From sequence record NC_054918.1: a stretch of DNA of 64,000 bases; one strand, 5' to 3'. The stretch comes from Escherichia phage vB_EcoM_G4498. Positions 2,418 to 63,048 of this stretch are shown here, piece after piece. A program made the translations under genes and the position numbers. Within the stretch, counting starts at the first letter, position 1, and each line of letters begins with the position of its first letter. The notes under the pieces are model-generated. The model worked only from the letters and a program-made list of their open reading frames with translations, was not told the origin of the DNA and did no database searches.

Positions 2418-2447
2418 ATTATACCACATCCTTGTGGTAAAGTAAAC
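2418..2447 (-). promoter_or_regulatory. early (sigma-70) promoter
   Basis: Minus strand GTTTAC (2442-2447), 18 nt, TATAAT (2418-2423). Upstream of rIIA.1/rIIA. Confidence 0.7.
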
Positions 2448-4594: not shown

Positions 4595-4599
4595 AATTT

Positions 4600-5152: not shown

Positions 5153-5566
5153 TTATTCCTTAAAGTGAGCTTTCAACATCTGATACAAGGACCATGCCTG
5201 TTCATCATTTTCAATAGTAACTTTCATTACAGGGAATTTAGATTGATCAGTTATCGGTGCAGATTCTTCCTGCTCTTCAGCTGCCTGGTATGGATTTTCA
5301 ACTTCATTAAAGAATTCAGCTTCATTCGATGAAAGCCAAATAAAATCTTCATCCAAAATATCTTTACCAGAAGATAGTACTAAATTTCCAGCAAATGACA
5401 TAATTTTAATAGGACGCCCAAGAGCATCCACATCTAAAATTTTAAAAGGATGCATACCTAAACGGCGTGCATAGATTCCGTTATCAGTATGGTCTTTAAT
5501 AAAATTTTCTTGAGCTTGTTTATTTTTAAATTGATACCATTTATTAACTTCAAATTTAATAGCCAT
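5153..5566 (-). CDS. goF: GoF mRNA-metabolism modulator (137 aa)
   Basis: Position after 39.x and size are close to T4 GoF. Recognition is from memory only. Confidence 0.6.
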
Positions 5567-5781
5567 TAATAAATTTCCTTCCAGTAAGTTGTACCATCTT
5601 CAGTGATTTCACGAAATACACCGTAAATTGGTTGTTTATCCCCAACCTTTTCATACACATAAACCGAAGTCAAGTGAGTAAACTTAGCAGTGTGTTCCTT
5701 TTGAACTACTACCAAATCTGGATCGAATAACACATCTTCAAATTCGTCATTAGTGCAGTTCTGAACAATTTTACGTTTCAT
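5566..5781 (-). CDS. cef: Cef, modifier of suppressor tRNAs (71 aa)
   Basis: Size and position match T4 cef. It overlaps the goF start by 1 nt. Confidence 0.55.
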
Positions 5782-5853
5782 TACAATTTCCTCGTTAATT
5801 GAACATTGGAGCGATGCGTTTCAGAAGAGTAGCAGCACCTTTGGCAAATTTTC

Positions 5854-5929
5854 CATTTTATTCTCCAAGTTATTTTCTGTATCAGTAGTTGATATTGATA
5901 TAGTACCATAATCAACTACTGATGTATAT
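5854..5929 (-). repeat. promoter/leader cassette copy A (degenerate) with a 13-bp inverted repeat
   Basis: Arms atcagtagttgat (5881-5893) and atcaactactgat (5911-5923) flank TACTAT (5900-5905). GGAGAATAAAATG leads into an 11-codon mini-ORF. Confidence 0.6.
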
Positions 5930-5952: not shown

Positions 5953-6444
5953 TTATGCATAGCGAGCTTTGCTGTAGTGTTTAATCCAACTTTCAGGAAT
6001 GACTTTGTATGTTCCTAAAAATACCGCGTTGTATAACTTAACGCCATCTTCTACCCATTGATCAGTAATGTATGCACACATAGCGCGAGTACGGTTAACA
6101 ACACCTTCCTCACCTTCAGTAAATTCAAACTCATAAGGAGCAACGAACTTGATAGCTTGACCGAGTTTCCACTTAAAGTCTACACCTACATGCGAAGTAT
6201 CAATCGTTTCAATTCCTTTAGCGGGAACAGCTTTCAAAAACGCAGGCTCAAGAAATTTCCATCGAACATAACCAAACTGAGGTTTAGACATTCCATCTTT
6301 AGGAATGATACGCACTTTTACTTCAGAATCTTCATCTTTAACACCATGTTTAAGCTGAATGCTTACGACTTCAACCAATTTTCCTGCTGCTTTAGAACGG
6401 GATTTATCAGATACACGAGCAATTTCACCGATATTAATATTCAT
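5953..6444 (-). CDS. motB: MotB-position DNA-binding protein (163 aa)
   Basis: Size and position match T4 motB. An early promoter lies at 6489-6518. Confidence 0.55.
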   Translation of the reverse strand: MNINIGEIARVSDKSRSKAAGKLVEVVSIQLKHGVKDEDSEVKVRIIPKDGMSKPQFGYVRWKFLEPAFLKAVPAKGIETIDTSHVGVDFKWKLGQAIKFVAPYEFEFTEGEEGVVNRTRAMCAYITDQWVEDGVKLYNAVFLGTYKVIPESWIKHYSKARYA

Positions 6445-6488
6445 AATTATCTCTCACTTGTTAAAAAGATTTTATACTCCGCAGGACC

Positions 6489-6518
6489 ATTATACTCTGG
6501 TCCCAAGAGTTTGTAAAC
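6489..6518 (-). promoter_or_regulatory. early promoter
   Basis: GTTTAC-N18-TATAAT upstream of motB. The -10 sits in the loop of a GGACC/GGTCC hairpin. Confidence 0.7.
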
Positions 6519-7065: not shown

Positions 7066-7566
7066 TTATCTCATTTCAATAAAATCTACAAGTTCAGCAT
7101 GGGATTTGCGGAACATTACTTGGTGCCCGCCAATGATAACTTGGTCATCTGGCACTTCGTATACAGCAAGATAAAATCCTTTAGAAGATAATTCTTCACG
7201 CTCTTCTCGTGTGAACCATCTCATCATATCATATTCACTAGCGAAAGCAAAATGATAAAGAGCTATAAACCATCCTGGAATATGATATTCTACTCCAACA
7301 TAATCTTTCTTGAACTTAGTATTAATTGCTGTATTAGCGTTTTTAACTAATAGTTTATCTTCATGCGGTACAGGAATTCTTTTATTATTATCGCTATGAT
7401 GCATAAAATTAGGTCTGTCATAACCTACGCGTAATAACCACTCTTCGCTCCATGAATCTATTATACTCCTGTATGGTGTTATTTGAACACAAAGATTTCG
7501 ACGCATTGTTATAGCATCTTCACAATTAAGAATACTAAAAGATGATTCAACACGATAAATTTTCAT
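7066..7566 (-). CDS. hypothetical protein (motB.2 position), 166 aa
   Basis: Start moved to the ATG at 7564-7566 (SD GAGGA). The track start lies inside the early promoter at 7594-7623. Confidence 0.6.
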   Translation of the reverse strand: MKIYRVESSFSILNCEDAITMRRNLCVQITPYRSIIDSWSEEWLLRVGYDRPNFMHHSDNNKRIPVPHEDKLLVKNANTAINTKFKKDYVGVEYHIPGWFIALYHFAFASEYDMMRWFTREEREELSSKGFYLAVYEVPDDQVIIGGHQVMFRKSHAELVDFIEMR

Positions 7567-7593
7567 TTTATTATCCTCAGTAGCTATGGTGTT

Positions 7594-7623
7594 ATAGTAC
7601 CACAACTAACCGAGGAAGTAAAC
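7594..7623 (-). promoter_or_regulatory. early promoter
   Basis: GTTTAC-N18-TACTAT upstream of 7066-7566. Confidence 0.65.
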
Positions 7624-15250: not shown

Positions 15251-15280
15251 ATAAATTCTCGCGGCTTTTAAGACGAGCTG

Positions 15281-18893: not shown

Positions 18894-19147
18894 TATTTTA
18901 TTTCCTCAAGTTCGTTAATCAATAAAAGTTCTCTGACGCTAAAAACAAAGAAAAATGTGTTCCCATCAACCAGAGCATGACCGCTAATAGAACACCCTCT
19001 GCGGAATTTAGAAACTTCACAATCTAGAACTGTAAAGGGTTTTAATCCTATGACTTTAGCTATGCGTCTATTCAGTTCACAACCACTTGCGAATTTTTCC
19101 AAATCTTCTTCTGATTTAAACTGATATTCTCTATTAACTAGCATCAT
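18893..19147 (-). CDS. GoF-like small protein, 84 aa
   Basis: VNREYQFKSEEDLEKF...RRIAKVIGLKPFTVLD aligns with [16 protein letters not shown]...[13 protein letters not shown] of the goF product. It has its own early promoter at 19179-19208. Confidence 0.65.
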   Translation of the reverse strand: MMLVNREYQFKSEEDLEKFASGCELNRRIAKVIGLKPFTVLDCEVSKFRRGCSISGHALVDGNTFFFVFSVRELLLINELEEIK

Positions 19148-19178
19148 TTTCTTTTCTCCGCGATTAGCTGATAGAATT

Positions 19179-19208
19179 ACTATAACACAACTCTATCAGC
19201 TTGTAAAC
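19179..19208 (-). promoter_or_regulatory. early promoter
   Basis: GTTTAC-N18-TATAGT upstream of the GoF-like ORF. Near-duplicate of 19667-19696. Confidence 0.65.
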
Positions 19209-19210
19209 TA

Positions 19211-19453
19211 CTATTTTACTAGCATCAATAACTGTTTCTCTAACTTGACGATTTTACGAAAGTATCTTTTGCATTGGCGAATCTGCCGCTTCGTAGGGCG
19301 CACAGCAAACTTAATAAATTCAACTCGACCAAATGGAGGACTTTCTTCTGCTGGAATATCTAACACCAATTCCCACGTATCTGCAATAAGTGCTTTGAAT
19401 TGAGTATTTTTCCTGACATTATACGGAGTAGGTTTAAATAAAACAATGTGCAT
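19211..19453 (-). CDS. small basic protein, 80 aa, translationally coupled to dmd (61.4/TifA-position candidate)
   Basis: ATG at 19451-19453 after GAGGA, 1 nt past the dmd stop. Basic C-terminus RPTKRQIRQCKRYFRKIVK. Confidence 0.55.
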   Translation of the reverse strand: MHIVLFKPTPYNVRKNTQFKALIADTWELVLDIPAEESPPFGRVEFIKFAVRPTKRQIRQCKRYFRKIVKLEKQLLMLVK

Positions 19454-19454
19454 A

Positions 19455-19637
19455 TTATCCTCGGCAATCCACTTCGCATACTTTCTTGTCATCAATGAAA
19501 GCTTTAACTAATGCTTTATTAACTTCAGCATATTGAGTAGTAGCCCATTGAACGTCGTCTTTCATCATTGTGATTTCTTTAGTAAACATGCTTTCATTCT
19601 TAAACCACCCCATAAAAACTACCTTTACCAATTCCAT
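19455..19637 (-). CDS. dmd: Dmd antitoxin (inhibitor of RnlA/LsoA), 60 aa
   Basis: MELVKVVFMGWFKNESMFTKEITMMKDDVQW... matches T4 Dmd in size and position. Confidence 0.85.
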   Translation of the reverse strand: MELVKVVFMGWFKNESMFTKEITMMKDDVQWATTQYAEVNKALVKAFIDDKKVCEVDCRG

Positions 19638-19666
19638 AACAATCTCCTCATTTAACCAACAAGACT

Positions 19667-19696
19667 ACTATACCATAGTCCTGTCAGCTTGTAAAC
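19667..19696 (-). promoter_or_regulatory. early promoter
   Basis: GTTTAC-N18-TATAGT upstream of dmd. Confidence 0.65.
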
Positions 19697-21483: not shown

Positions 21484-22657
21484 TAAATTCTTCCATATCA
21501 CTTAACTGTTCGAGGTCAGTTTCTAAATCAGCAGCTGATTTACTTTTACTTTCTGGAGATTTAAATTTTTCAACCTTTGAGTTAATCAATTCATCAACTT
21601 CAGCTTCAACAATTTCATTGCTATCAATAGCACCTAACTGATAAGCACGTTTAATAGCATCTCGGAATGGTTGATGCTTAAATAAAGGACCCCAGAATGT
21701 AGTGCAGTTGGTATCTTTTGCACGCCAAGATTTTTCTTCGCGAATCATCTCACCGGTTTCTTCATCAAGAAATTCACGAGCATACCAACCGTTCTTAGGT
21801 TTTACCACGAATCCTAATTCTAGAGCCATATCTAACAATCCAGAATAAGGATCGATACCACCGTCAAATTTAACATCAATAAAGAATTTACTTTTTTCTT
21901 TAACGGTACGAGATTTTTCTACATTTAGAACAAATTGATACCCCTGAAGATCAGAACCATCTTTAATCTGGCGCTTACCGATAATGAATACGGTATCAGC
22001 TGAATACATTACGCCTGTACCACCTGTCATCACGGTTTTACTAAACATTTCAATTGTTTCAATTGTATGGTTAACCGCAACGCACGGAATATTTTTAATG
22101 CTAAAATAAGGAGTAACAATACGGAATAATGACTTCAGTGATTTAGCACGAGTCATATCTGCCACAGATTTTTCATTCAAGGCATCTTCCGTTTCTTTCT
22201 TAGAAGCCATATTACCGATTGAGTCGATGAATACAATAACCTTTTCACCACGCTCAATAGCTTCAAGCTGGTTCACCATATCAATTTTCAGTTGTTCAAC
22301 TGACTGAATCGGCGTATGAATTACTCGTTCCGGGTCAACTCCCATGGATCGCAAATAAGCTGGAGTAATACCAAATTCACTATCATAGAATAGACAAACC
22401 GCGTCAGGATATTTGTTCAAATATGCCGCAACCATAGTCAAAGACATATTTGATTTAAAGTGTTTAGAAGGCCCTGCGAAAATAGTTAAACCAGACTGCA
22501 TACCGCCATCAATCGCACCAGAAATAGCAATATTAAGCATTGGAATTTTTGTACGAATTACATCCTTTTCATTAAAGAATTTAGATGTAGTCAGTTCAGC
22601 AGTCATTTTAGAAGTGGAAGCTTTAATCAAACGGGATTTTAAATCTGCAATAGACAT
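21476..22657 (-). CDS. uvsX: UvsX recombinase (RecA/Rad51 family), 393 aa
   Basis: Near-identical to my memory of T4 UvsX (GPSKHFKS Walker A and the acidic C-terminus). Confidence 0.95.
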   Translation of the reverse strand: MSIADLKSRLIKASTSKMTAELTTSKFFNEKDVIRTKIPMLNIAISGAIDGGMQSGLTIFAGPSKHFKSNMSLTMVAAYLNKYPDAVCLFYDSEFGITPAYLRSMGVDPERVIHTPIQSVEQLKIDMVNQLEAIERGEKVIVFIDSIGNMASKKETEDALNEKSVADMTRAKSLKSLFRIVTPYFSIKNIPCVAVNHTIETIEMFSKTVMTGGTGVMYSADTVFIIGKRQIKDGSDLQGYQFVLNVEKSRTVKEKSKFFIDVKFDGGIDPYSGLLDMALELGFVVKPKNGWYAREFLDEETGEMIREEKSWRAKDTNCTTFWGPLFKHQPFRDAIKRAYQLGAIDSNEIVEAEVDELINSKVEKFKSPESKSKSAADLETDLEQLSDMEEFNE

Positions 22658-22711
22658 TCATTTTTTTCCATAGGCATCATTATATTTTCCTCACTGGTTA
22701 AAGATAGAGTA

Positions 22712-22737
22712 ATTATAACACAATAAATTTAGGCATT
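22712..22737 (-). promoter_or_regulatory. probable middle promoter for uvsX
   Basis: AATGCCTAA (one mismatch), 11 nt, TGTTATAAT extended -10. T4 has a well-known PuvsX middle promoter at this position. Confidence 0.5.
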
Positions 22738-23578
22738 AATCAACTGCTATTGGATGAATAGCATTAAACTTATGAAATGCTTCTGATTTTTCTTTACGCG
22801 AAACGCACATGCGAAGAACCTTTAATGGCTCGTCTTCTTCACCCAACGATTTTCGTTTTTCAATATTAGAAGTTTTCCAACGAGCTTGCTCTGGAAACTC
22901 TCTATTGATTTGCTCAAGCGCTCTATTATGTTTAGAATTACTACGAATTGAACTGCACCCTCCAGGAGCTTGTGCTTTTCCAGATACAACCAGATATTTG
23001 AACAAGGCCAAATGCGGATAACCTTGATTAATTAAATTGAGAAATGCATACATATCTTCGCACAAATCAATTTTTCCATACCCAATTTGTTCTGTCGTAA
23101 GTTTTCCAAGGTCATACCATGTATTCGTGAATCCATATGAATTTTCACGATAATTACCCCAAGATGAAGTAATTTTAAAAATTGGTAGGCGAGCATGACC
23201 GTGATAATACCCACAATCCATGGCATCTTCGACGTATTGAATCAATTCATAGAACTGTTCACGAGTCAATTGATTGACTTTATCCACACAACGACGATCA
23301 TCTCTTTTTCGCATTGAACTCATACGAATAGTAGTATCATCGTCAATCATCCAGATTCGTTGACCTGCATACATATCAGTAATTGCTTTACGAGTACCGG
23401 CAATTCCATTAACATCATCAGGAATAGTTACAATTTTAGCTTTAGACCCATAGGCATCATAATAAGCTTTTTCTTCATGTTCACGTACTACGATATGAGG
23501 TTCATAATCAGTCGGAAACATATCAAGGGCAGAAACTGCCCCTACACGTTGATAGCTCGGAATTACGAATTGAATCAT
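22736..23578 (-). CDS. GT-A-like glycosyltransferase, probable beta-1,6-glucosyl-HMC-alpha-glucose transferase (beta-alpha-gt) of T2/T6 type, 280 aa
   Basis: DxD motif IWMIDDDTTI. Sits where T4 has beta-gt but is unrelated to my memory of the T4 beta-gt sequence. Confidence 0.65.
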   Translation of the reverse strand: MIQFVIPSYQRVGAVSALDMFPTDYEPHIVVREHEEKAYYDAYGSKAKIVTIPDDVNGIAGTRKAITDMYAGQRIWMIDDDTTIRMSSMRKRDDRRCVDKVNQLTREQFYELIQYVEDAMDCGYYHGHARLPIFKITSSWGNYRENSYGFTNTWYDLGKLTTEQIGYGKIDLCEDMYAFLNLINQGYPHLALFKYLVVSGKAQAPGGCSSIRSNSKHNRALEQINREFPEQARWKTSNIEKRKSLGEEDEPLKVLRMCVSRKEKSEAFHKFNAIHPIAVD

Positions 23579-24216
23579 TTAAGTGCCTTACATTTGTCAA
23601 AATGGTATCTTGTCATATTTGGCCCACGTCCTTTTAGTCCGCAATGCGGACATATTTTTTCTATCAAATTATGAGGTTTTCCTTTACGATTTTTAGACAT
23701 CGTTTCTTTAATTATTTTAGCTTTTTCTACGCCAAAAATTTCTTCATAAGTTTTACCAGAATTTTCCTTGGCTCGATTTATAATTCCATATGCCTGCTCA
23801 TTTTTACCATACATTGGATTACCTTCGCCTTTCATTCTTTTAGAATGATCAGGACGCTTGATTCCACGAAAGGCATTTCCGCACTTATATCTTTCTTCTG
23901 GAGATAGTTTTTTACCGTACATTCCATTTAATTTGCCTGGAAAACTTCCTCCCCATGCTTCATTCTTTAAATTATATGAATCCGGACAATTAGCAGCATC
24001 TAAACAAGTTAAAATAATTTCTTCAACCTGTCTAAACATTGGTCCTTCATATAATATTTCTTTATTAAAGGATTTTATTCCATATTTCTTTTTAGCATGT
24101 TGCCAAACTACACCCGAACCATCATAATTCGGGTTGTGACCATCATGACTTCCTATATACCACTTTTTAGTTTTAGGATGTTTATACTTATAAACATGCG
24201 GCACATTTACTTCCAT
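23575..24216 (-). CDS. free-standing GIY-YIG (Seg-like) homing endonuclease, 213 aa
   Basis: VYKYKH-x6-KWYIGS GIY-YIG motif. NUMOD3-like repeats. C-terminal CPHCG...NMTRYHFDKC zinc finger. Confidence 0.8.
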   Translation of the reverse strand: MEVNVPHVYKYKHPKTKKWYIGSHDGHNPNYDGSGVVWQHAKKKYGIKSFNKEILYEGPMFRQVEEIILTCLDAANCPDSYNLKNEAWGGSFPGKLNGMYGKKLSPEERYKCGNAFRGIKRPDHSKRMKGEGNPMYGKNEQAYGIINRAKENSGKTYEEIFGVEKAKIIKETMSKNRKGKPHNLIEKICPHCGLKGRGPNMTRYHFDKCKALK

Positions 24217-25750: not shown

Positions 25751-25987
25751 TCAAATGCAAGTAGTAATTACTCCAGTAGTGCTTATGCAGGTATTACCCA
25801 TTTGCACACCTAAAGATCCATTTGTATTCACATGAAGATTATCATCAATTTTAACTGATATTTTACCATTAGTGTGAATAACAGTGCTAGATTCAATCAC
25901 AGGTTGAGTATCATTTTCAACACTAACAAATGGAACTGCTGCTAATGCAACTAAACAAACTGCTAAGCATCCCATAACAATTTTCAT
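25751..25987 (-). CDS. small secreted/membrane-anchored protein, 78 aa
   Basis: Start moved to the ATG at 25985-25987 (MKIVMGCLAVCLVALAA...). The upstream track codons are the promoter/leader cassette. Confidence 0.6.
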   Translation of the reverse strand: MKIVMGCLAVCLVALAAVPFVSVENDTQPVIESSTVIHTNGKISVKIDDNLHVNTNGSLGVQMGNTCISTTGVITTCI

Positions 25988-26054
25988 TTTATTCTCCAAA
26001 TCCGTATCAGTAGTTGATAGTTGTATAGTACCATGGAAGAACATTCTTGTAAAC
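25985..26054 (-). repeat. promoter/leader cassette copy B
   Basis: Minus strand GGTACTATACAACTATCAACTACTGATACGGATTTGGAGAATAAAATGAAA. Confidence 0.75.
26025..26054 (-). promoter_or_regulatory. early promoter
   Basis: GTTTAC-N18-TACTAT. Part of leader cassette copy B. Confidence 0.65.
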
Positions 26055-26140
26055 AGTTTTGTGAAAATTTTTTAGGGAATTCTAAATGTCCAGAATCATC
26101 TGTTTTTCATAAGTATAGATTTATATTACTTGTATGAAAA

Positions 26141-26158
26141 AGGGACCCGGAGGTCCCT
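26141..26158 (-). terminator. terminator hairpin after gene 43
   Basis: AGGGACC-UCCG-GGUCCCU followed by UUUUC. Confidence 0.7.
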
Positions 26159-26170
26159 AGATTTATTCTA

Positions 26171-28867
26171 TCAGCCAAACAGGAAGTCTAACGAAGCTTT
26201 TTCTTCATAGTCCATACCAGCCGATTCACACATGCCCGCAAGCGGTTTAACAAACGATTTTTGGAACAAAGTTGAGTAGTCAATCCAAGACAGTACGTCA
26301 GAACGAATTTCTTTTGGAAGTTCTGTACCCGACGGCCAAGCAATGCATTTGTCACCAAATGGATTTCCTTCACGCAATGGAAGAACCATTACTTTATTTC
26401 CATCCAAAATTGGAGCTACACCTAAACCGCTAACAGCTCGACGATAAGTTAGCACACCACGAATATGGAACGGACATTTAAATCCTGGCCAACCTTTATC
26501 ATCATATTTCGCTATATCGTTCGCAGTTTTTACTTCAGCAATAACTTTATAGTCAAGTTGACGATATTCTTTCTCGAAGTTCTTGTAATATTCTTGGACA
26601 GACTCTTCACCTTCCTGAAGAATACGACGAATACTTTCTTCGAGAGCTTCTTGGACCGCTTTAGGCGTTGAACTTTGCTGAGTTTCCATACCCATGATTT
26701 TTAGATGCGGTTCAGCAAATCGCTTATCTTCCATATCATAAACGTTCAGAGCATAACGCTTTTTCGCTTTCCAAAATCCACCAACACCCTTTGAACCAAG
26801 TGGAGGGCAAGAAATAGCTTCACGGTCCATATGCATCAGATGCTCGCGGTTATTCATATAATCACATAACTCACGATATGCAACATCAATCATAGGTTCC
26901 ATCTTTTTCTTACCGAACTGATTCATGAATTCAACTAAATCGTTCTGCTCTTTGAATCGGTCAAGACCAACTTTTTCAATAACTTTATCTACACAAACAT
27001 ATACCGAATCAGTATCACCTGCTGCGATGAAATCTTCACCATTAGTTCCGCATACTTTATTCAGATATTCATTAATTTTACGAGCAATCCACTGAATACC
27101 GACTTGGCCGAAAATTGTGATAGCAGTAGCATTTCGCAGATCATAATAACGGAAATGAATATTACCAAGAGCACCATAAAGACTATTAATGAGAATTTTA
27201 CGGTTCAGCTGATTTGTGTTAGCAAGTGTAGCTGCTTTTTCACATTCTTCAATCAAACTATTGAGAACAGATTCAGTATAATTCGATAGTTCATTTAAGA
27301 AATCATCACTGAACTTAACATATCGTTCAACTTCAGGTTTAGTTGAACAAGACCCTGCGCCTTTCATAATAATCTTTTTAATAGCTTCGGCATTCATTTC
27401 TTCAGCGAACATTTTCTTTTTCCAATCTTTACGCTGGAAAAATACTTTAGCGATTTCCTTTGGAATGATACCTTCTTGATGCTTATCATACATCCATCCA
27501 TTCGGAGAACAAGAATATTCATCACTTGGTTTAGGAGCTGTTCCTGCGATATATTCATGAATTGGATGAACTTTAAACTGTCCACGAATAGTCTCAGGAC
27601 TAATGTTAACCTGACGAATAATGCTCGGATACAGAGACGTCAAGTCAAAACTCATAATATATCGACGAGCAATTGGTTTAGGTTCAAACACAAATGCACC
27701 CGGAAAACTCTGTTTAACGTGCGAACCTTGTTGAGGAATAACCTTGTGTTCACCTTTCAATGAGTTAAAAATAATAGCATCCCAAGTTTTAATAGGACTC
27801 ATTACACCAGAAAAAGGCATTTTAGCGTAATAAGACATACTTAAAACTAGATCGATAAACCCGCGAATTTTATCAATTGCTTGAACTGATTCTACGTCAA
27901 TGATGTTATAACTAATGTATCGTTGATGATTAGTCTCACGAAGTTTATTAATAGGACCGTCGTATGGTAATTTACCTTTTTTGGTTTCATGTTGAGCAAC
28001 TGATTCCAAAGAGAATGACGGCAAATTAGTAAAAGCGAATTTCTTGTACAAATCTAAATAATCAAGAATAGATACGCCATCAATAGAATAAATTTCTTTG
28101 CTACCGTACATATTTTGAATTAGTTTAGATTTTACTCGACCGATTGGAGAGAAGCGTTTCATACTGCGTTCACCTAGAATCATTTTAACACGATTCATGA
28201 TATACGGAACGTCAAACCCCTCAATATTCCAACCAGTAAAAATAGCAGGTCGTTTCTGTTCCCAGAGATTAATATATTCCATGAGCATATCACGCTCATT
28301 ATCGAATGGCATATAAATTACTCGGTCAAGAATTTCTTGAGGAACTTCATCACCACCTTCACAGTCAAGCTTAGCAGCTAACTTTGCATCCCATTTTGAT
28401 ACTGAACCGTACATTGAATTCAAAAGGTCGAAAACATAAAAACGGTCATCAATTGAATCGTAATGAGTGATAGCATCAATTTCATATTCAGCTTTCATTG
28501 GGTCAGGAAATTTATCACCAGTAACCTCAATGTCGCAGTTAGCTACACGAACAAATTTTCGGTCATAAACAATTTCTGAACCATACGTATCACTGATATA
28601 AGCGAGTTTAAAATCGTTCATACCGAGAGCTTCGAGACCGATGTCTTCCATTCGTTTCATCCAATCTCGAGCATCTTTCATTGATGGAAATTTTTGAGGA
28701 GCACAGTTTTTACCATAGATGTCTTTGTACTTTGACTCTTCCTTACAATGTCTAAACATAGTTGGAAGATATTCTACTTCACGAGTACGTTCCTTTCCGT
28801 TTTCATCAATATAACGTTCAACAATGTTATTTCCGACTGTTTCGATAGAGATATAAAATTCTTTCAT
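26171..28867 (-). CDS. 43: DNA polymerase gp43 (family B), 898 aa
   Basis: Exo and Pol motifs (DIE, SLYPS, YGDTDS-like AAGDTDS). Length matches T4 gp43. Confidence 0.97.
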   Translation of the reverse strand: MKEFYISIETVGNNIVERYIDENGKERTREVEYLPTMFRHCKEESKYKDIYGKNCAPQKFPSMKDARDWMKRMEDIGLEALGMNDFKLAYISDTYGSEIVYDRKFVRVANCDIEVTGDKFPDPMKAEYEIDAITHYDSIDDRFYVFDLLNSMYGSVSKWDAKLAAKLDCEGGDEVPQEILDRVIYMPFDNERDMLMEYINLWEQKRPAIFTGWNIEGFDVPYIMNRVKMILGERSMKRFSPIGRVKSKLIQNMYGSKEIYSIDGVSILDYLDLYKKFAFTNLPSFSLESVAQHETKKGKLPYDGPINKLRETNHQRYISYNIIDVESVQAIDKIRGFIDLVLSMSYYAKMPFSGVMSPIKTWDAIIFNSLKGEHKVIPQQGSHVKQSFPGAFVFEPKPIARRYIMSFDLTSLYPSIIRQVNISPETIRGQFKVHPIHEYIAGTAPKPSDEYSCSPNGWMYDKHQEGIIPKEIAKVFFQRKDWKKKMFAEEMNAEAIKKIIMKGAGSCSTKPEVERYVKFSDDFLNELSNYTESVLNSLIEECEKAATLANTNQLNRKILINSLYGALGNIHFRYYDLRNATAITIFGQVGIQWIARKINEYLNKVCGTNGEDFIAAGDTDSVYVCVDKVIEKVGLDRFKEQNDLVEFMNQFGKKKMEPMIDVAYRELCDYMNNREHLMHMDREAISCPPLGSKGVGGFWKAKKRYALNVYDMEDKRFAEPHLKIMGMETQQSSTPKAVQEALEESIRRILQEGEESVQEYYKNFEKEYRQLDYKVIAEVKTANDIAKYDDKGWPGFKCPFHIRGVLTYRRAVSGLGVAPILDGNKVMVLPLREGNPFGDKCIAWPSGTELPKEIRSDVLSWIDYSTLFQKSFVKPLAGMCESAGMDYEEKASLDFLFG

Positions 28868-36314: not shown

Positions 36315-37515
36315 ATTTTGTAATAATGTCAAACTGTTCTTTAAAACAGAAGCTTGAATCTTGGTGCTGATACAAAAATTCATATGCTTTTTCTCGCTCA
36401 CGGTCATAAAGAGCTCGGTCAGATGACAGTTCTTTAATACGTTCAAACGCTGATTCCATATCATTTTCATCAAACCAAATGATACCGCTATCATGCGAGG
36501 TCAAAGGAGTATTATCAACACGGAATTTTAAATTTTCGCCAGTAGATTTCCAAAATACCGGAATTGTTCCACATGCACCAAGCTCGAGATGAGTATATTC
36601 TAAAGAGCGCTGTAGATATTTTTTATCCAACTTACTCAACTGATAACCAAATCCGGATTTACTCATACGTTCAAGCATTTCGCTATTTACATAACGATCG
36701 AGAATTTGCGTTGGTAAATTAGGAGCAATTTTAATTTGGTCTACTTGATGAAGACGATAATACTCGTATGGAATTCCTTTTTCTTTAATAGGAATGAACG
36801 CTGGAGAACGTTCCAGACCTTCCATAATAGTACTTAGTCCTGCAGGTTTAAGATGTTTTTCGTGAAAATCAAACATCTGATAAAAACCTTTCCATGTAGT
36901 CGTACGACCAATCCAACGGTTGACATTCATGTTAATTTCAGAAACATCTTTCCAGTAGGTTGACCGAACCTTCGCAATATCCATAGGAGGCTGAAAGTTA
37001 TATACGGTCGGCGCTTCTTCAATATCATCAAACAGAGAAACAGTTTCTGGATACCATTCTTTCATCAGAACTTTATTAAAATCACCATTATCAGAATGGC
37101 TAAAAATAACATCAGCTCGACGAACAGTTTCTTCTAATCCCAAATTTCGACGCAAAGAAAGAGAAGAATGGTCATGTTGATAAACTACAACACGAACCGA
37201 AGGTTTAATGTTATCAATAATTTTTTTATAGTTATTAATAGTGTCTTCTTCAACTGAAGTAGCAGGAACTGAATTGATAATTAGAATATCACAATCATTT
37301 ACCAGCTTAAGTGTTTTATCGTATTCTTTTGCCAATAAAACCGGAATTGAAAATGATTTATAATCATGCGCACAGTTACGAGTAAATGATTTATCTTTGG
37401 CATAAACCAAAGTTACTTCATGACCATTTTTAATAAACCAATCACGTTGCTCGAGTGAGAATTTTGTTACACCACAACCTTCAAGACCTCGAGCCATAAA
37501 AATACATACTTTCAT
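36313..37515 (-). CDS. a-gt: DNA alpha-glucosyltransferase, 400 aa
   Basis: M(K/R)(V/I)CIFMARGLEGCGVTKFSLEQRDWFIKNGHEVTLVYAKDKSFTR... closely matches T4 a-gt. Confidence 0.95.
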   Translation of the reverse strand: MKVCIFMARGLEGCGVTKFSLEQRDWFIKNGHEVTLVYAKDKSFTRNCAHDYKSFSIPVLLAKEYDKTLKLVNDCDILIINSVPATSVEEDTINNYKKIIDNIKPSVRVVVYQHDHSSLSLRRNLGLEETVRRADVIFSHSDNGDFNKVLMKEWYPETVSLFDDIEEAPTVYNFQPPMDIAKVRSTYWKDVSEINMNVNRWIGRTTTWKGFYQMFDFHEKHLKPAGLSTIMEGLERSPAFIPIKEKGIPYEYYRLHQVDQIKIAPNLPTQILDRYVNSEMLERMSKSGFGYQLSKLDKKYLQRSLEYTHLELGACGTIPVFWKSTGENLKFRVDNTPLTSHDSGIIWFDENDMESAFERIKELSSDRALYDREREKAYEFLYQHQDSSFCFKEQFDIITK

Positions 37516-37539
37516 TTAATATCCTCTTTGTTTTGGTTT

Positions 37540-41556: not shown

Positions 41557-42027
41557 TTAATCATGTTTCCACACCCCATCGGTATTTGACCAAAGTCGCT
41601 GATTATCTGATCCTCGCCACAGCTTTTTAGTCGGAAGATTTTTCTCATACTTCCCATCAATAATAACATCAACATATTTAAGCATTTCTAGTTGTTTAAT
41701 ATCTTCAAACTTATATCCTGTCCACAACCAAATGCTTTTATTGGGATAAAGATTTTTTACTGTTTGAACAATGCAATGAATAACATCTCGATTGTCAGGA
41801 TAGAGAGGGTCTCCTCCAGTTATAGTTAATCCTTCTATATAATCATTATTCAAACATTCAATCAATTGTTCTAGTGTTTCACCAGTGAATGGAATACCAT
41901 TTCTAGCATTCCATGTTGATTTATTATAACACCCTTCACATTTATGCAAACAACCTGTAACGAAAAGAACGACCCTGCAACCAGGGCCATTCACAAAATC
42001 GCAAGGATAAAATCTATCATAATTCAT
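41557..42027 (-). CDS. nrdG: NrdG anaerobic RNR activase (radical SAM), 156 aa
   Basis: CxxxCxxC cluster motif GCLHKCEGCYN. Size matches T4 NrdG. Confidence 0.92.
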   Translation of the reverse strand: MNYDRFYPCDFVNGPGCRVVLFVTGCLHKCEGCYNKSTWNARNGIPFTGETLEQLIECLNNDYIEGLTITGGDPLYPDNRDVIHCIVQTVKNLYPNKSIWLWTGYKFEDIKQLEMLKYVDVIIDGKYEKNLPTKKLWRGSDNQRLWSNTDGVWKHD

Positions 42028-43841
42028 TGGTGCTTAACCCTATGCATGATTTCTTTATTTTTACCGAGATTAAATCCGCGTTCGTTCGGATTTCCCAAAT
42101 AACCGCATGTTCTTCTTATGGTATTCATCTTTTTAGGATCAGTTTCTCCACAAATAGAACAAACAAATCCGTTTTCAGTAGGAATCATTTCATGGGTACT
42201 TCCGCATGTAAAACATTTATCTACTGGCATATTAACACCAAAATAATCTAAATGTTGTGCAGCATAATCCCATACAGCCTCAAGACCTTTTAGGTTATTT
42301 TTCATATCAGGAAGTTCAACATAAGAAATGTGACCACCTGTCGCAATGAAATGATATGGCGCTTCACGAGAAATCTTTTCAAACGGAGTAATATTTTCTT
42401 CTACTGAAACGTGGAAACTGTTAGTGTACCAGCCTTTATCGGTAACATCTTTTACACTTCCATATTTTTCTGTATCAAGTTTACAGAAGCGGTAACAAAG
42501 GTTTTCAGCAGGAGTCGAATATAAACTAAAAGCAAATCCGGTTCTTTCAGTCCACTGTTTAAGATGAGCATTCATTTTAGTTAAAATTTCTTGTCCAATA
42601 TCACGACCGACAAGAATATTCAATTCGTGAATACCAATGTATCCCAAAGACACTGAACTTCTGCCGTTTTTAAATAACTCAATTATATCGTCATCAGGTT
42701 TAAGACGAACCCCGAATGCACCTTCTTGGTAAAGAATAGGAGCAACAGTCGCTTTAACTCCTTTTAAGGAACTAATTCTACACATCAAAGCTTCAAAACA
42801 CAGATCCATTCGTTCATTAAATAGCTCAACAAATTTCTGCTCATTGAATTGAGTTCCAATATAAGAATCTAATGCGATGCGAGGAAGATTCAATGTTACA
42901 ACACCAAGATTATTACGTCCATCAAGAATTTCATTACCGGTTGAATCTTTCCACACACTCAAAAAACTGCGGCAACCCATTGGAGAAACAGGAATAGATG
43001 AACCGGTGATAGCTTTGTTATTCTTAGCCGAAATGATGTCAGGATACATTCTTTTGCTTGCACACTCTAAAGCAAGCTGTTTAATATCATAGTTAGGATC
43101 GTCTTTATAAAGATTAACACCTTCTTCAACGAACATAACAAGCTTAGGGAAAATAGGAGTTATCCCATCACGACCAAGACCTTTAATACGATTTTTCAGA
43201 ATTGCTTTCTGAATCATTCGTTCAGTCCAGTCAGTTCCTGTACCAAATGTAATTGTTACAAAAGGTGTTTGTCCGTTTGAACTAAAGAGAGTATTTACTT
43301 CATATTCATAAGCTTGGAATGCATCGTATACATCTTTTTCTGTTTTAGATTGAGCATAATTTAACGCATCAGCGATTTGCCATTTTTCTGCATCCTCAAT
43401 ATGTTTTGCATAGGTGCGTTTAACATAAGGAGAAAGTACTTTATCTACATTAGCAAAAGTCGTTCCGCCGTATTGATGGGAAGCAACCTGTGCAGTAATT
43501 TGTGCCATAATTGCAGTAGCAACACCGATTGATTTAGGAGTTTCAATCTGTGCATTACCAAGCTTAAATCCATTCTCAAGCATTCCTTTTAAATCTACTA
43601 AACAACAATTAGTAAATGGAAGAGCAGGGGAATAATCAATATCGTGGAAATGGATAATTCCGCTTTCATGCGCTTTCATAATAAAAGACGGGACCATATT
43701 TTTGGCAATGTGTTTAGACACAATACCAGCCATAAGGTCCCGTTGAGTTGGAAAAACACGAGAATCTTTATTAGCATTCTCATTCAAAAGGTCTTTATTA
43801 GTTTTATGAATCAATCCTTCAATTTCTTTTTCAATTGTCAT
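42024..43841 (-). CDS. nrdD: NrdD anaerobic ribonucleotide reductase (glycyl radical enzyme), 605 aa, intronless
   Basis: Continuous 605-codon ORF with the C-terminal glycyl-radical region RRTCGYLG and a Cys4 motif. Confidence 0.95.
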   Translation of the reverse strand: MTIEKEIEGLIHKTNKDLLNENANKDSRVFPTQRDLMAGIVSKHIAKNMVPSFIMKAHESGIIHFHDIDYSPALPFTNCCLVDLKGMLENGFKLGNAQIETPKSIGVATAIMAQITAQVASHQYGGTTFANVDKVLSPYVKRTYAKHIEDAEKWQIADALNYAQSKTEKDVYDAFQAYEYEVNTLFSSNGQTPFVTITFGTGTDWTERMIQKAILKNRIKGLGRDGITPIFPKLVMFVEEGVNLYKDDPNYDIKQLALECASKRMYPDIISAKNNKAITGSSIPVSPMGCRSFLSVWKDSTGNEILDGRNNLGVVTLNLPRIALDSYIGTQFNEQKFVELFNERMDLCFEALMCRISSLKGVKATVAPILYQEGAFGVRLKPDDDIIELFKNGRSSVSLGYIGIHELNILVGRDIGQEILTKMNAHLKQWTERTGFAFSLYSTPAENLCYRFCKLDTEKYGSVKDVTDKGWYTNSFHVSVEENITPFEKISREAPYHFIATGGHISYVELPDMKNNLKGLEAVWDYAAQHLDYFGVNMPVDKCFTCGSTHEMIPTENGFVCSICGETDPKKMNTIRRTCGYLGNPNERGFNLGKNKEIMHRVKHQ

Positions 43842-45283: not shown

Positions 45284-45293
45284 TTTTCACCAA

Positions 45294-45464
45294 TTAATTT
45301 CGCAATTTATTAAGTTCTTCATAATCAATCCAGGATTCTAATCCTGATGGCAAATCAGATTCAATTTCCCAAAGAAGTTCTTCAATTTTATGAAGACGAT
45401 CTAGTTCTTCAGCAGGAATAGTAACCACTGACGGAGCTCTTGCTACATTAATATCGTAAATCAT
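45294..45464 (-). CDS. small hypothetical protein, 56 aa
   Basis: Start moved to the ATG at 45462-45464 (MIYDINVARAP...), just after the upstream stop. Confidence 0.5.
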   Translation of the reverse strand: MIYDINVARAPSVVTIPAEELDRLHKIEELLWEIESDLPSGLESWIDYEELNKLRN

Positions 45465-45466
45465 AT

Positions 45467-48500: not shown

Positions 48501-48530
48501 ATTATACCACATCCTTGTGGCGAAGTAAAC
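48501..48530 (-). promoter_or_regulatory. early promoter
   Basis: GTTTAC-N18-TATAAT. The spacer is nearly identical to the promoter at 2418-2447. Confidence 0.7.
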
Positions 48531-50915: not shown

Positions 50916-51443
50916 TTATGCGAGTACCGTCTTTAACCGTTCTTCAAACTTCCGAAGAGTATTTTGGCGTTCAGCTCTTTGCTTTTTGTAAGTTTCAATA
51001 CGCTCTGAAATGAGAGTGTATCGTTCATTTACTGATTCTTTCATAAAATCAGGAATTTCACGAGAAGCTTTAATCTCGTCAAATTTATCAATAACAGCTT
51101 GCTCTTCAGCAATTAAGTTATCATACATCAAAATATCTTTCTTGATGAACTCAATATCTTCTTGAGTTACACGAGATAATTTAGATGCTTTATCCTTTTT
51201 GTACTGTTCGTTAGTATCACGAGACCAGTGTAATGTACGATTTTTATTCATATTCTTGTAAATTTCTACAATACCAATCTCATCGATAATAACGATCCAA
51301 TTCCAACGGGATTTGTAAATTTGTCCTCCATCAACAGTGATTTCACCTCCGATTGAGATGTCATTAAAGAACTTGCTTTGTGCTTCAGATTTAAATTTAC
51401 CATCATTGTAGTTTACCAAGTTGAAAATATCTTTAGCATTCAT
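50916..51443 (-). CDS. hypothetical protein with a helical/coiled C-terminal half, 175 aa
   Basis: Start at MNAKDIFNLV (ATG 51441-51443). The upstream track codons are the promoter/leader cassette. Confidence 0.65.
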   Translation of the reverse strand: MNAKDIFNLVNYNDGKFKSEAQSKFFNDISIGGEITVDGGQIYKSRWNWIVIIDEIGIVEIYKNMNKNRTLHWSRDTNEQYKKDKASKLSRVTQEDIEFIKKDILMYDNLIAEEQAVIDKFDEIKASREIPDFMKESVNERYTLISERIETYKKQRAERQNTLRKFEERLKTVLA

Positions 51444-51501
51444 TTTCTGTTCCTCCGTAGTTGATAGTTGTATAGTACCACAGAGGAACGGTCTTGTAAA
51501 C
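51441..51501 (-). repeat. promoter/leader cassette copy C
   Basis: GGTACTATACAACTATCAACTACGGAGGAACAGAAAATGAAT. Shares the first ~22 nt after the -10. Confidence 0.65.
51472..51501 (-). promoter_or_regulatory. early promoter
   Basis: GTTTAC-N18-TACTAT. Leader cassette copy C. Confidence 0.65.
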
Positions 51502-51907: not shown

Positions 51908-52876
51908 TTATTTCAGAAGAGTAACCTCAGCGATTTCTTCCCAACCGTTTTTGTCGGTCATAATAAAGTCAGCAAGATAAAGCGCAGTACGCAGTGAAAC
52001 ATTGCGTAAACGATTAACATTGACTTTCATCCATGATAATGCTTTATAAGTTTCTTCATCAGAAAGACCACGCTTTTGCATCATGTCAGTTGAAAGAATA
52101 ACATCTTCAACCCTGACCATAATTTCTTCATTAGTGTGAACACCCAAATCCAAATAAACTGAGCGGGACACTAATGCTTGTAAATGTGGAGCAAGTTTAG
52201 TACCACGGTCTAATTCGCGGTCAATGTCAACGTTTGTGATAAAAACAATCGTTCCTTTAAATTCAAACTCACGCTCAATGCCTTTTTCTTCTAAGTAAGA
52301 AGATGCAGTGCTCCAGCAGACTTTACGGGTCTCTCCAGTGTCCAGAGCAGCTTTCAGAAGATTAAGAATGTCCATATCAGAGAAAACATCCACATCATCA
52401 ATCAAAAGGACAGAATTCTCTTCACGATTATTCCAGAGCTGTTCATAAAGACCGATACCAGAGATTTTACCGTTAATGCTTTTATATTCAATGTATCCAA
52501 TATCATTTGCTTTATTTAAAGCTTTATCTAAAGAATACGTTTTACCAATGCCTGCTGCGCCAGAGATAATTAATGAACGAATGTTTCCGTTAATAATACC
52601 ATTCGTCATCATTCCCATAACATTAAATCTTTTATTAATACGGGTTTTCATATCTTCATATGATTCTTTAACTTCTTCAACTTTTACGCCATCATATGAA
52701 ATGTCTGATTTGTAAACCCAAACACCGCGACGTTTACCGTCAATTTCAACAAAAACTTTACCATCTCCTTGTGCATCTACCGGAGCATTATCAGGGAACC
52801 ACTCACCTAAGAGTTCAAAAGTTCCAGAGATTTCTTTACCGAAGTAGATACCCTTATTGATAGTTACAGTTTTCAT
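51908..52876 (-). CDS. AAA-type ATPase (nrdC.10 position), 322 aa
   Basis: Walker A SGAAGIGKTYS and Walker B VLLIDDVD. Start at MKTVTINKG (ATG 52874-52876). Confidence 0.75.
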   Translation of the reverse strand: MKTVTINKGIYFGKEISGTFELLGEWFPDNAPVDAQGDGKVFVEIDGKRRGVWVYKSDISYDGVKVEEVKESYEDMKTRINKRFNVMGMMTNGIINGNIRSLIISGAAGIGKTYSLDKALNKANDIGYIEYKSINGKISGIGLYEQLWNNREENSVLLIDDVDVFSDMDILNLLKAALDTGETRKVCWSTASSYLEEKGIEREFEFKGTIVFITNVDIDRELDRGTKLAPHLQALVSRSVYLDLGVHTNEEIMVRVEDVILSTDMMQKRGLSDEETYKALSWMKVNVNRLRNVSLRTALYLADFIMTDKNGWEEIAEVTLLK

Positions 52877-52940
52877 TTTATTCTCCAAATCCGTATCAGT
52901 TGATAGTTGTATAGTACCATAAAGCTTTATGCTTGTAAAC
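52874..52940 (-). repeat. promoter/leader cassette copy D
   Basis: GGTACTATACAACTATCAACTGATACGGATTTGGAGAATAAAATGAAA. Differs from copy B by a 3-nt deletion. Confidence 0.75.
52911..52940 (-). promoter_or_regulatory. early promoter
   Basis: GTTTAC-N18-TACTAT. Leader cassette copy D, just after the terminator at 52971-52988. Confidence 0.65.
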
Positions 52941-52970
52941 AACTTTGTGAAAAAATTTTGAAATAAAAAA

Positions 52971-52988
52971 GGGAGCCCGAAGGCTCCC
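52971..52988 (-). terminator. rho-independent terminator after the nucleotidyltransferase gene
   Basis: GGGAGCC-UUCG-GGCUCCC followed by UUUUUUAUUU. Confidence 0.8.
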
Positions 52989-52990
52989 TA

Positions 52991-54462: not shown

Positions 54463-54464
54463 AA

Positions 54465-55535: not shown

Positions 55536-55536
55536 A

Positions 55537-55722: not shown

Positions 55723-55826
55723 TACATACTCCTCTGAATCATATCAATAATGTTGTTTACCAAATTATAAGTAAACATTGGGTAATTATATTGAATCATC
55801 ACATACACAACAAACAAAACTTTCAT
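55722..55826 (-). CDS. very small hydrophobic peptide, 34 aa (not in the ORF track)
   Basis: My own translation: MKVLFVVYVMIQYNYPMFTYNLVNNIIDMIQRSM. SD AAGGAG and a TAATG overlap with the next start, downstream of the promoter at 55855-55884. Confidence 0.35.
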   Translation of the reverse strand: MKVLFVVYVMIQYNYPMFTYNLVNNIIDMIQRSM

Positions 55827-55854
55827 TCTCTTCTCCTTGGCAGTTGACAAGATT

Positions 55855-55884
55855 ACTATACCATAACCTTGCCAACTTGTAAAC
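55855..55884 (-). promoter_or_regulatory. early promoter
   Basis: GTTTAC-N18-TATAGT. Confidence 0.6.
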
Positions 55885-56246: not shown

Positions 56247-56450
56247 TTAAACTCTCGTATTATGATCGATAATTTCATCAAGAAACATATCTAACGCTTC
56301 TACAGCATTATTAACTTTATCTTCAAGTTCTTCAATACTTTTATTTGCAATGCCTGACGAAAACCAAGCAAAGTCACTAAGTTCCTCGTCTGCTTTACGA
56401 ATTAAAGCTACTAATTCCTTAATTTTATCTGCTTGTTCGATACTAATCAT
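56247..56450 (-). CDS. small helical protein family, 67 aa
   Basis: Start at [20 protein letters not shown] (ATG 56448-56450), with a TAATG overlap. Confidence 0.55.
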   Translation of the reverse strand: MISIEQADKIKELVALIRKADEELSDFAWFSSGIANKSIEELEDKVNNAVEALDMFLDEIIDHNTRV

Positions 56451-56638
56451 TATTCCACCACATATGAAAGAGAGAATATTGCACACGCCATGTGAGTTGC
56501 AACTTCATCACACATATTATAACGTTTCTTAAGAAGTTCTACAAGTTCTTCACTAGTAACTTCATCCATGTCGACGAAAAAATCACCATTAATGATGACG
56601 TAGATATTTCCTTCTTGATTGAGTGCTTCAATTTTCAT
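56450..56638 (-). CDS. small hypothetical protein, 62 aa
   Basis: Start at [10 protein letters not shown] (ATG 56636-56638), downstream of the promoter/leader cassette. Confidence 0.55.
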
Positions 56639-56696
56639 GATGTTCTCCTCTTTATCCGATAGTTGTATAGTATCACAGCTCAAACGGAAAGTAAAC
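56636..56696 (-). repeat. promoter/leader cassette copy E
   Basis: GATACTATACAACTATCGGATAAAGAGGAGAACATCATGAAA. Confidence 0.6.
56667..56696 (-). promoter_or_regulatory. early promoter
   Basis: GTTTAC-N18-TACTAT. Leader cassette copy E, just after the terminator at 56712-56729. Confidence 0.65.
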
Positions 56697-56711
56697 CGGT
56701 AAAATGAAAAA

Positions 56712-56729
56712 AGTCTCCCGAAGGAGACT
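56712..56729 (-). terminator. rho-independent terminator after the rI.-1-position gene
   Basis: AGUCUCC-UUCG-GGAGACU followed by UUUUUUCAUUUU. Confidence 0.8.
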
Positions 56730-58259: not shown

Positions 58260-58268
58260 ATCACCTTC

Positions 58269-60392: not shown

Positions 60393-60854
60393 TCATTGAG
60401 TTTTAATTACTGCTTTAGAAGCCTTTCCTGGTAAACGACGACTGTTAATAATTGCCATCCTACATTGAAGCGACGGGTCTTTGAACTTCTCATTAGGTTT
60501 ACAAACTGTAAATCCGAGCCAAAGATTTCCATCTGTGATTTCTAAACGTCCAGGACGATATTCAACCCCATCAATAAAATCCTCGTCAATGTCAGGACGC
60601 GGAGGCATACTTAGGAATTCATTAACTTCTAAAACATGGTCTTTTATTTTATGGAATAATTCAAAAACGTATGTCTCATCAATCTCCCGTTGAATTGCGC
60701 GATCAAGAAGATGCTGAGAATATTTTAGATGAAACGATGAGACTCCTGCTGCTTTTGATGCCTCACGAATCTCATTGTTAATTTGACGAAACTCCGACTC
60801 AAAGTGACGACGAAGCTTATTTCGACGGATAAAAACTTCTGTATTGATAGTCAT
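60393..60854 (-). CDS. regB: RegB sequence-specific endoribonuclease, 153 aa
   Basis: MTINTEVFIRRNKLRRHFESEFRQINNEIREASKAAGVSSFHLKY... matches T4 RegB. Confidence 0.93.
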   Translation of the reverse strand: MTINTEVFIRRNKLRRHFESEFRQINNEIREASKAAGVSSFHLKYSQHLLDRAIQREIDETYVFELFHKIKDHVLEVNEFLSMPPRPDIDEDFIDGVEYRPGRLEITDGNLWLGFTVCKPNEKFKDPSLQCRMAIINSRRLPGKASKAVIKTQ

Positions 60855-60881
60855 GTTGTTCTCCTCTTAACTGATAGAAAA

Positions 60882-60911
60882 ATTATACCACAGTCAAGAG
60901 GAAAAGTAAAC
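60882..60911 (-). promoter_or_regulatory. early promoter
   Basis: GTTTAC-N18-TATAAT upstream of regB. Confidence 0.7.
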
Positions 60912-62975: not shown

Positions 62976-63048
62976 GCACTTGGGCTCGACCTTATTACAT
63001 GTTGGCGGGAATCCCTCACAAAATCATGAGGTCCAGGTTGTTCCCATG

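Follow-up and report, generated by a model that had tools for sequence, protein, structure and literature searches.

The five related segments described here (copies A to E, Table 1) are in all likelihood members of one sub-family of T4-type early promoters, each fused to a standard 5′ leader and a translation start. Taken as a whole, the explanation that best fits the sequence and its analogies with phage T4 is that their likeness would have arisen through recombination, which made mosaics of them, that they behave like the promoter early stem-loops (PeSLs) of T4-type phages, and that they are associated with a Shine-Dalgarno (SD) sequence of the RegB type.

The segments lie in a 64-kb stretch of DNA (the window, by which we mean the whole stretch analysed). 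This is the early region of a Tequatrovirus, collinear with positions 12-66,203 of T4 (BLAST against AF158101), the collinearity being interrupted by 19 insertions, deletions or replacements. All genes of the window and all five copies are on the minus strand, where a promoter scan placed about 17 T4-type early promoters. The orthologous T4 positions of A, B, C, D and E are those before imm.1, nrdC.10, nrdC.8, mobD.5 and cef, respectively. Copy A is located between gene 43 (DNA polymerase, 28867..26171) and imm.1/imm, and about 500 Tequatrovirus genomes match a 2.5-kb query around it with 95-99% identity.

Table 1. Positions of the five cassettes and of associated features in the window.
Feature	Position	Strand	Remarks
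Candidate intrinsic terminator after gene 43	26158..26141	-	87 nt upstream of the cassette A -35
Cassette A	26084..25985	-	A/T-rich upstream element 26084..26055; -35 GTTTAC 26054..26049
Cassette A, -10	26030..26025	-	TACTAT, behind an 18-nt spacer with TG; scan result TTTACA/17/TACTAT + TG
Cassette A, SD and ATG	25997..25987; 25987..25985	-	SD GGAGAATAAAA, RegB/S1 type, GGAGRAYARAA match
78-aa ORF behind A	25987..25751	-	PHROG 4189; hydrophobic N-terminus
Cassette B	52989..52874	-	Full terminator + promoter composite (candidate)
Cassette B, candidate terminator	52989..52970	-	8-bp GC-rich stem and T-run, then A/T-rich element
Cassette B, -35 and -10	52940..52935; 52916..52911	-	Palindromic spacer CATAAAGCTTTATG
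Cassette B, SD and ATG	52886..52876; 52876..52874	-	SD GGAGAATAAAA; ATG of nrdC.10 homologue
nrdC.10 homologue behind B	52876..51908	-	Sub-threshold Pfam AAA matches
Cassette C	51501..51441	-	Before nrdC.8 homologue (51443..50916); own SD GGAGG
Cassette D	56729..56636	-	Candidate terminator 56729..56712; -35 56696..56691; -10 56672..56667
Cassette D, SD and ATG	ATG 56638..56636	-	Own SD AGAGGAGAA; ATG of mobD.5 homologue (56638..56450)
Cassette E	5929..5821	-	Degenerate -35 ATATAC 5929..5924; -10 5905..5900
Cassette E, SD and ATG	5866..5856; 5856..5854	-	SD GGAGAATAAAA; ATG starts 11-codon remnant ORF 5856..5821
cef	5781..5566	-	About 40 nt past the 11-codon remnant of E; PHROG 1354
regB	60854..60393	-	Pfam REGB_T4, E = 8e-69; own early promoter 60911..60882
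Promoters with spacer-leader pairing	60911..60852; 55884..55824; 51501..51441; 19696..19635	-	Complementarity, sense-strand G-U pairs
Promoters with spacer-leader pairing	19208..19145; 7623..7564; 6518..6442; 5929..5854	-	Complementarity, sense-strand G-U pairs

Architecture and likeness of the five copies

The promoter scan gave A, B and C the same form, TTTACA/17/TACTAT with an extended -10 TG; the promoter of D is GTTTAC-N18-TACTAT without the TG. An A/T-rich upstream element (aaaaaattttcacaaaact and variants) is found 5′ of A, B and E. The -40 to -60 region falls inside the upstream gene in C and coincides with the T-run of the candidate terminator in D. The SD and start codon of the downstream gene form the 3′ end of all five copies. 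An upstream terminator stem-loop adjoins B and D only, the stems of C and E spanning the -10 instead. The B and D stem-loops are candidate intrinsic terminators, which makes these two copies putative textbook composites of terminator and promoter. On the minus strand, A reads GTTTAC-aagaatgttcttccatgg-TACTAT-acaactatcaactactgatacggatttGGAGAATAAAATGaaa, B reads GTTTAC-aagcataaagctttatgg-TACTAT-acaactatcaactgatacggatttGGAGAATAAAATGaaa, and E reads ATATAC-atcagtagttgattatgg-TACTAT-atcaatatcaactactgatacagaaaataacttGGAGAATAAAATGgaa; C has the common -10 with acaactatcaactac and then GGAGGAACAGAAAATG, and D has TACTATacaactatc followed by a leader of its own. The architecture of T4 early promoters has been reviewed as UP/-35/TGn/-10 (PMC2988021), and the -35 and -10 of the T4 e.8 copy are annotated by the depositor of the record. 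A literature search for start-site mapping of these particular T4 promoters gave only irrelevant papers.

From the -10 through ATG+6, A and B are identical in 48 of 52 aligned columns, which upholds the near-identity of the leaders at 25985-26054 and 52874-52940 on which the original prediction was built. The 2-nt "(AC)" difference that it placed between them is in fact an indel of 3 nt (ACTACT versus ACT). The -35/-10 spacers of the two copies are unrelated. Exact copies of the 21-mer GGTACTATACAACTATCAACT lie at 26032..26012, 51479..51459 and 52918..52898, joined by a copy with three mismatches at 5907..5887 (all on the minus strand), where 0.01 chance matches would be expected from shuffled sequences. 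C and D have in common with the other copies only the block of -10 and start site (TACTATACAACTATC(AACTAC)), D being limited to TACTATACAACTATC; E has ATCAACTACTGATAC and GGAGAATAAAATG, SD block included. Partial sharing at 51441-51501, 56636-56696 and 5854-5929 was thus correctly foreseen, and the term "verbatim" is apt for A and B but too strong for C, D and E, which are only partial copies.

The 101-nt cassette is present at 1585 places in 516 phage records. T4 has the core at nine places, upstream of ndd.6, motA, frd.3, e.8, denV/ipII, nrdC.10, nrdC.8, imm.1 and cef. In T4 and IMG/VR genomes combined, at least eight different genes lie behind an identical 21-mer core; the IMG/VR scan for the 21-mer yielded 20 loci from a handful of T4-like genomes, too few for statistics. 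In Salmonella phage STML-198 (158 kb), 47 nt of cassette core and leader (89265-89311) recur with 95.7% identity and are the sole match to a 951-nt query, which hints that the cassette extends beyond the close relatives of T4.

Mosaicism of the cassettes

Comparison among copies reveals segments that have been reassorted. The T4 nrdC.10 and frd.3 cassettes are alike from the terminator-proximal region, through an 18-nt spacer that is identical in both, to the -10 and transcribed base 15, beyond which they diverge. The leader GGATTT-GGAGAATAAAATG is found behind three unrelated spacers (imm.1, nrdC.10 and the copy upstream of ndd.6), and the T4 e.8 cassette combines an imm.1-type (A-type) spacer with an E-type leader. 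In the copy upstream of ndd.6, an 8-codon relic comes after ATGAAAATCGCT, which is the first 12 nt (four codons) of imm.1. In one IMG/VR locus (L022), spacer and leader of the C type stand before an unrelated gene.

One could envision that strong early genes simply need the same optimal start-site region and the same RegB/S1-type SD, and that the copies converged on these with no exchange between them. Such a scenario fits the conserved blocks, which map onto functional elements (TG-TACTAT, the start region and GGAGAATAAAA), as it does the unrelated spacers of A and B and the fact that the RegB site is a defined 11-mer (PMC1702504). Selection for function would, however, leave unexplained the spacer identity between nrdC.10 and frd.3, for which there is no known constraint, as well as the spacer common to imm.1 and e.8, the imm.1 codons copied upstream of ndd.6, the C-type segment at L022 and the chimeric cassettes at the nrdC.11/nrdC.10 insertion site (see below); the reassorted segments already point to mutually incompatible histories. 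Function offers no evident explanation for an identity that extends into spacers and first codons, so the data are better accounted for by exchange between copies, and we regard convergence as the sole cause as improbable. Under the exchange model, homologous or microhomology recombination between cassettes would generate the mosaic copies, and identical blocks of 21-29 bases would provide portable junctions through which small early genes might be inserted, deleted or re-promoted.

Cassettes as probable sites of gene gain and loss

The proposal that junctions between related phages fall in the cassettes held for A, B and E, where they lie inside the cassette or at its 3′ edge; it did not hold for C and D, where insertions were found in 0 of 24 and 0 of 39 evenly sampled relatives, respectively. 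At A, the 78-aa ORF is absent from T4, whose cassette joins imm.1 directly. The segment is bounded by an 8-nt direct repeat, ATGAAAAT, common to the imm.1 start at 25740, and the ORF is present in 317 phage records, compared with 647 in which the gene 43-imm region has a match. At B, 14 of 32 evenly sampled full-length matches have extra DNA between nrdC.11 and nrdC.10; the three that were inspected contain one (PYps55T), two (ESh36) and four (vB_EcoM_FT) extra genes. In ESh36 (locus L028) the pair is flanked by two cassettes, with promoters at 660 and 1137. Each extra gene comes with an early-promoter cassette of its own, and these cassettes are chimeric: the B promoter with ACAACTATCAA is fused to other leaders, and nrdC.10 retains GGAGAATAAAATGAAAACTG behind a different promoter. 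At E, an 89-aa gene lies directly behind the cassette in about 9 of 27 sampled relatives and is intact in Yersinia phage phiD1. The 11-codon remnant in the window (MENLPKVLLLF) is what an in-frame 234-nt deletion has left of this gene, and T4 bears the same scar. The junctions at A and E require no more than 6-8 nt of start-codon microhomology (ATGAAAAT; about 6 nt around GGAAAA), and the whole cassette is not needed.

Only two of the 19 events that separate the window from T4 map to early-promoter cassettes (A and a unit at 18901-19229), so no enrichment over other junctions can be claimed. Seven events involve homing-endonuclease genes or an intron, and most others have junctions at which start and stop codons overlap. 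Judged from these alignments, the cassettes are very probably genuine recombination junctions, and one route among several; their identical 20-30-bp blocks would double as junctions for the gain or loss of small accessory genes.

The integration of genes as units might suggest a dedicated recombinase or mobile element for which the cassettes are sites, along the lines of integron-like, site-specific gene-cassette capture. Insertions at B do arrive as promoter plus gene, and the authors of the PeSL study raised the possibility of a specific DNA-binding protein and of mini-circles (PMC2839356). Against this idea, the crossover points vary (after CTATCAA, within SD-ATG or at ATGAAAAT), terminal inverted repeats, target duplications and adjacent recombinase genes are all absent, and many other gene swaps in the window make use of start/stop-codon microhomology with no cassette. 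Capture by a dedicated enzyme is thus very improbable.

The other differences from T4 deserve mention in their own right. Relative to T4, the unit at 18901-19229 adds a promoter and a small gene; its boundaries fall immediately 5′ of the -35 elements of two early promoters (19208 and 18893), and it is the window's second PeSL-style insertion. Replacements or insertions at 45291-45677, 55128-55710, 58260-58825, 4597-4968 and 63046-63490 have junctions at overlapping stop and start codons (ATGA, ttATG) or just behind the conserved leader peptide MKTYQEFI (internal-protein locus); microhomology of start and stop codons seems to be the most frequent kind of junction in the window. Several T4 mobile elements are missing, namely the gene 60/mobA/60.1 insertion that splits the topoisomerase gene, segF, mobB, mobC and the nrdD intron with I-TevII (positions 2783-2846, 15251-15280, 37507-37530, ~42007-42027 and 43304-43305); segA/beta-gt is replaced at 22646-24214 and mobD at 54006-54967.

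The Shine-Dalgarno region and the leader

The original prediction recognized the GGAG of the SD as the RegB cleavage motif. In A, B and E the SD region is exactly GGAGAATAAAA, and the GGAG falls within GGAGAAUAAAA, which is to the letter the optimal RegB/S1 site given in PMC1702504. The same paper gives the general form as GGAGRAYARAA, in single-stranded RNA, with ribosomal protein S1 reading the A-rich part. This general form has three matches in the window, A, B and E only, with 0.31 expected. C and D have the GGAG and lack the A-rich heptamer, the sequence in C being GGAGGAACAGA; the SD of T4 nrdC.8, the equivalent of C, is listed there as moderately cut by RegB. Predicted minimum free energy (MFE) folds leave the GGAG free in A and E; in B they engage it in a long-range pairing that is very weak (-2.1 kcal/mol) and mostly missing from the centroid structure.

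From the sequence, orthology and the T4 literature, one can outline how the cassettes are likely to work. Host sigma-70 RNA polymerase would bind the A/T-rich UP element, the -35 GTTTAC(A) and the TG-extended -10 TACTAT and start a few bases past the -10, leading to strong transcription right after infection. With a leader of some 35-40 nt that is predicted to be essentially unstructured, ribosomes would load freely on the GGAG, 7 nt before the AUG. In A, B and E the 11 nt of GGAGAAUAAAA would double as an optimal site for RegB and S1, and once RegB had accumulated, a cut inside the SD would turn translation off and hasten decay of the message, limiting expression to a short burst. RegB cleavage is known to inactivate T4 early mRNAs functionally (PMC3014915). 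The cassettes illustrate how a very strong promoter with a built-in RNase site would be expected to produce a short pulse of expression.

A further suggestion was that the leader folds into a TATCA-ACTAC-TGATA hairpin, and one may ask whether the leader controls the downstream genes through its RNA structure, either as a hairpin switch or as a stem-loop bound by a protein. The pairing is possible in A and E. In A its energy is -1.9 kcal/mol, no better than that of shuffled sequences (z = +0.6), and the leader MFEs of the five copies are -1.9, -2.1, -2.7, 0 and 0 kcal/mol, with z from -0.4 to +1.1 (+0.6 to -0.4 for those of -1.9 to -2.7 kcal/mol). The ACT deletion destroys the stem in B while the remaining leader is kept, and in E the same bases are the 3′ arm of a far stronger pairing with the promoter spacer. 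No Rfam family matched anywhere in the window, and RegB/S1 requires single-stranded RNA (PMC1702504). With folds this weak, shuffle-like and lost in B, the hairpin was rejected as a functional element, and regulation by a structured leader is highly unlikely.

Genes behind the cassettes

That the genes behind the cassettes are unrelated proved correct: the proteins behind the five copies belong to different PHROG families (4189, 1250, 2274, 3024 and 1354, the last being cef). The label "AAA ATPase" for the nrdC.10 homologue has sub-threshold Pfam AAA matches as its sole basis. The first thing behind E, overlooked previously, is the remnant ORF and not a gene. The read-through translations GTIQLSTTDTDLENKMK (A) and GTIQLSTDTDLENKMK (B) were reproduced and agree with the recurrent pseudo-peptide GTIQLST(T)DTDLENKMK; such peptides are artefacts of frames that are open across non-coding DNA. 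The notion that the repeat is coding sequence, a conserved N-terminal extension (GTIQLST..DTDLENKMK) of the downstream proteins, has next to no probability and was rejected on the strength of 1-nt indels (beside 3-nt ones) between orthologous leaders in other phages and of the T4 annotation, which puts each gene start at the ATG past the SD: A, B and C do have an open frame across the cassette and the A/B indel is a multiple of three, but the repeat houses an entire promoter together with an SD 7 nt ahead of the annotated ATG, candidate terminators directly precede D (and B), and E comes after the motB stop codon. The copies are thus modules of promoter, leader and SD, as had been proposed. 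For annotation, this means that the cassettes should be labelled as early promoters with 5′ leaders, that ORF extensions through them should be discarded and that the 11-codon ORF behind E should be treated as a deletion scar.

Codons 2-5 of the 78-aa ORF (25984..25973, minus strand) read AAAATTGTTATG, identical to the core of the RegA SELEX consensus (aaAAUUGUUAUGUAA), and make a second in-frame ATG. The RegA-like 12-mer has one exact match in the window, where the count of single-mismatch sites is not above chance.

Predicted pairing between promoter spacer and leader

Nine to ten of the 17 early promoters of the window, C and E among them but neither A nor B, have a -35/-10 spacer complementary to their own leader and SD; the predicted stems span 12-18 bp and enclose the -10. 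In C, the spacer (51489..51477) pairs with leader and SD (51461..51449) over 13 bp at -21.5 kcal/mol, leaving most of the -10 in the loop; E has a 13-bp perfect inverted repeat between spacer (5923..5911) and leader (5893..5881). Cognate duplexes range from -17 to -25 kcal/mol, as against -8.2 +/- 3.4 for non-cognate ones (permutation p < 5e-5), and 10 of 36 T4 promoters fall below the 1st percentile of the non-cognate distribution. In a paralogous family made of the window promoters 19208, 19696 and 55884 and two T4 copies, a 13-bp helix around the -10 is paired in 100% of 65 cells, compared with 23-60% in slid controls, five of its pairs show compensatory changes, and several pairs of the helix are G-U on the sense strand. 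The hairpin occurs in none of six promoters with an adjacent upstream terminator and in 11 of 31 others (Fisher p = 0.15).

A stem of this kind would form only in read-through RNA, as a transcript started at the promoter itself would be devoid of the 5′ arm. The transcript reading through from upstream would fold into a 12-18-bp hairpin with the -10 in the loop and the SD, with its GGAG, in the 3′ arm. It is tempting, if only tentatively, to envisage such early promoters as translational and RegB insulators whose SD might be usable, or exposed, only in RNA from their own promoter. If this were true, the gene would be translated, and its SD presented to RegB, solely from that promoter. For T4 proper, this layer of pairing seems the least described part of the system.

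A pair of promoters at 2447..2418 and 48530..48501 (minus strand) have in common a 32-nt block with 94% identity and a small hairpin inside the spacer (CCACAAGGATGTGG); they are another promoter sub-family reused before unrelated genes.

Comparison with known systems

The closest counterparts are the T4 early promoters of imm.1, nrdC.10, nrdC.8, mobD.5, e.8 and the one upstream of cef, which occupy orthologous positions with near-identical sequence and the same architecture. Differences from the T4 imm.1 promoter are that A drives the extra 78-aa ORF ahead of imm.1 and that there are small substitutions, such as GAATAAAATG here for GAATGAAATG in T4. With respect to RegB, copies A, B and E resemble the T4 RegB/S1 sites in having the exact 11-nt GGAGAAUAAAA as SD, leaders that are predicted to be unstructured and regB in the same genome. 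Copy C departs from the optimal sites with its GGAGGAACAGA, and for its T4 equivalent only moderate cleavage is reported (PMC1702504).

PeSLs were described in RB49 and phi1, where crossovers were mapped between -10 and ATG and mini-circles were detected (PMC2839356), and were later extended to PST/T4 and nt-1/KVP40, with the PST/T4 consensus TTTACW-N17-TAYWAT (PMC4122927). The present copies are similarly repeated before unrelated small genes and fit the PST/T4 consensus; A, B and E lie near indels or replacements, with probable crossovers between -10 and ATG. Unlike PeSLs, only B and D have a terminator directly upstream, that of A being further away, C and E pair the spacer with the leader, and C and D are without a nearby change in gene content in the sampled relatives. 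The PeSL idea put forward at the outset is therefore in accord with the published PST/T4 picture at A, B and E; it falls short at C and D and in its leader hairpin, which is weak. The RB49 study also noted stem-loops with G-T pairs between -35 and -10 or over the -10, and read them as terminators (PMC2839356).

The spacer-leader stems inspire a further analogy, with the hairpins that sequester the start sites of T4 e, soc, 49 and I-TevI (PMC3014915). As in those genes, the SD of C, E and roughly half of the remaining early promoters would be covered by a 3′ arm whose 5′ partner lies ahead of the start site, and promoter-proximal transcripts alone would expose the SD. The internal promoter is late or middle in the known cases and early in the present ones, and A and B have no such pairing.

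An older parallel is offered by the repeats of about 70 bp, promoter plus stem-loop, that flank the internal-protein genes of T-even phages (Repoila et al. 1994, cited in PMC2839356). These too are T4-type early promoter repeats with weak A/T-rich stem-loops and a proposed role in shuffling small genes; they differ in belonging to the internal-protein loci, whereas copies A to E are distributed among the imm, nrdC, mobD and motB/cef regions. Overall, our observations agree with what has been published on T4 early promoters, RegB and PeSLs and leave the current understanding unchanged.
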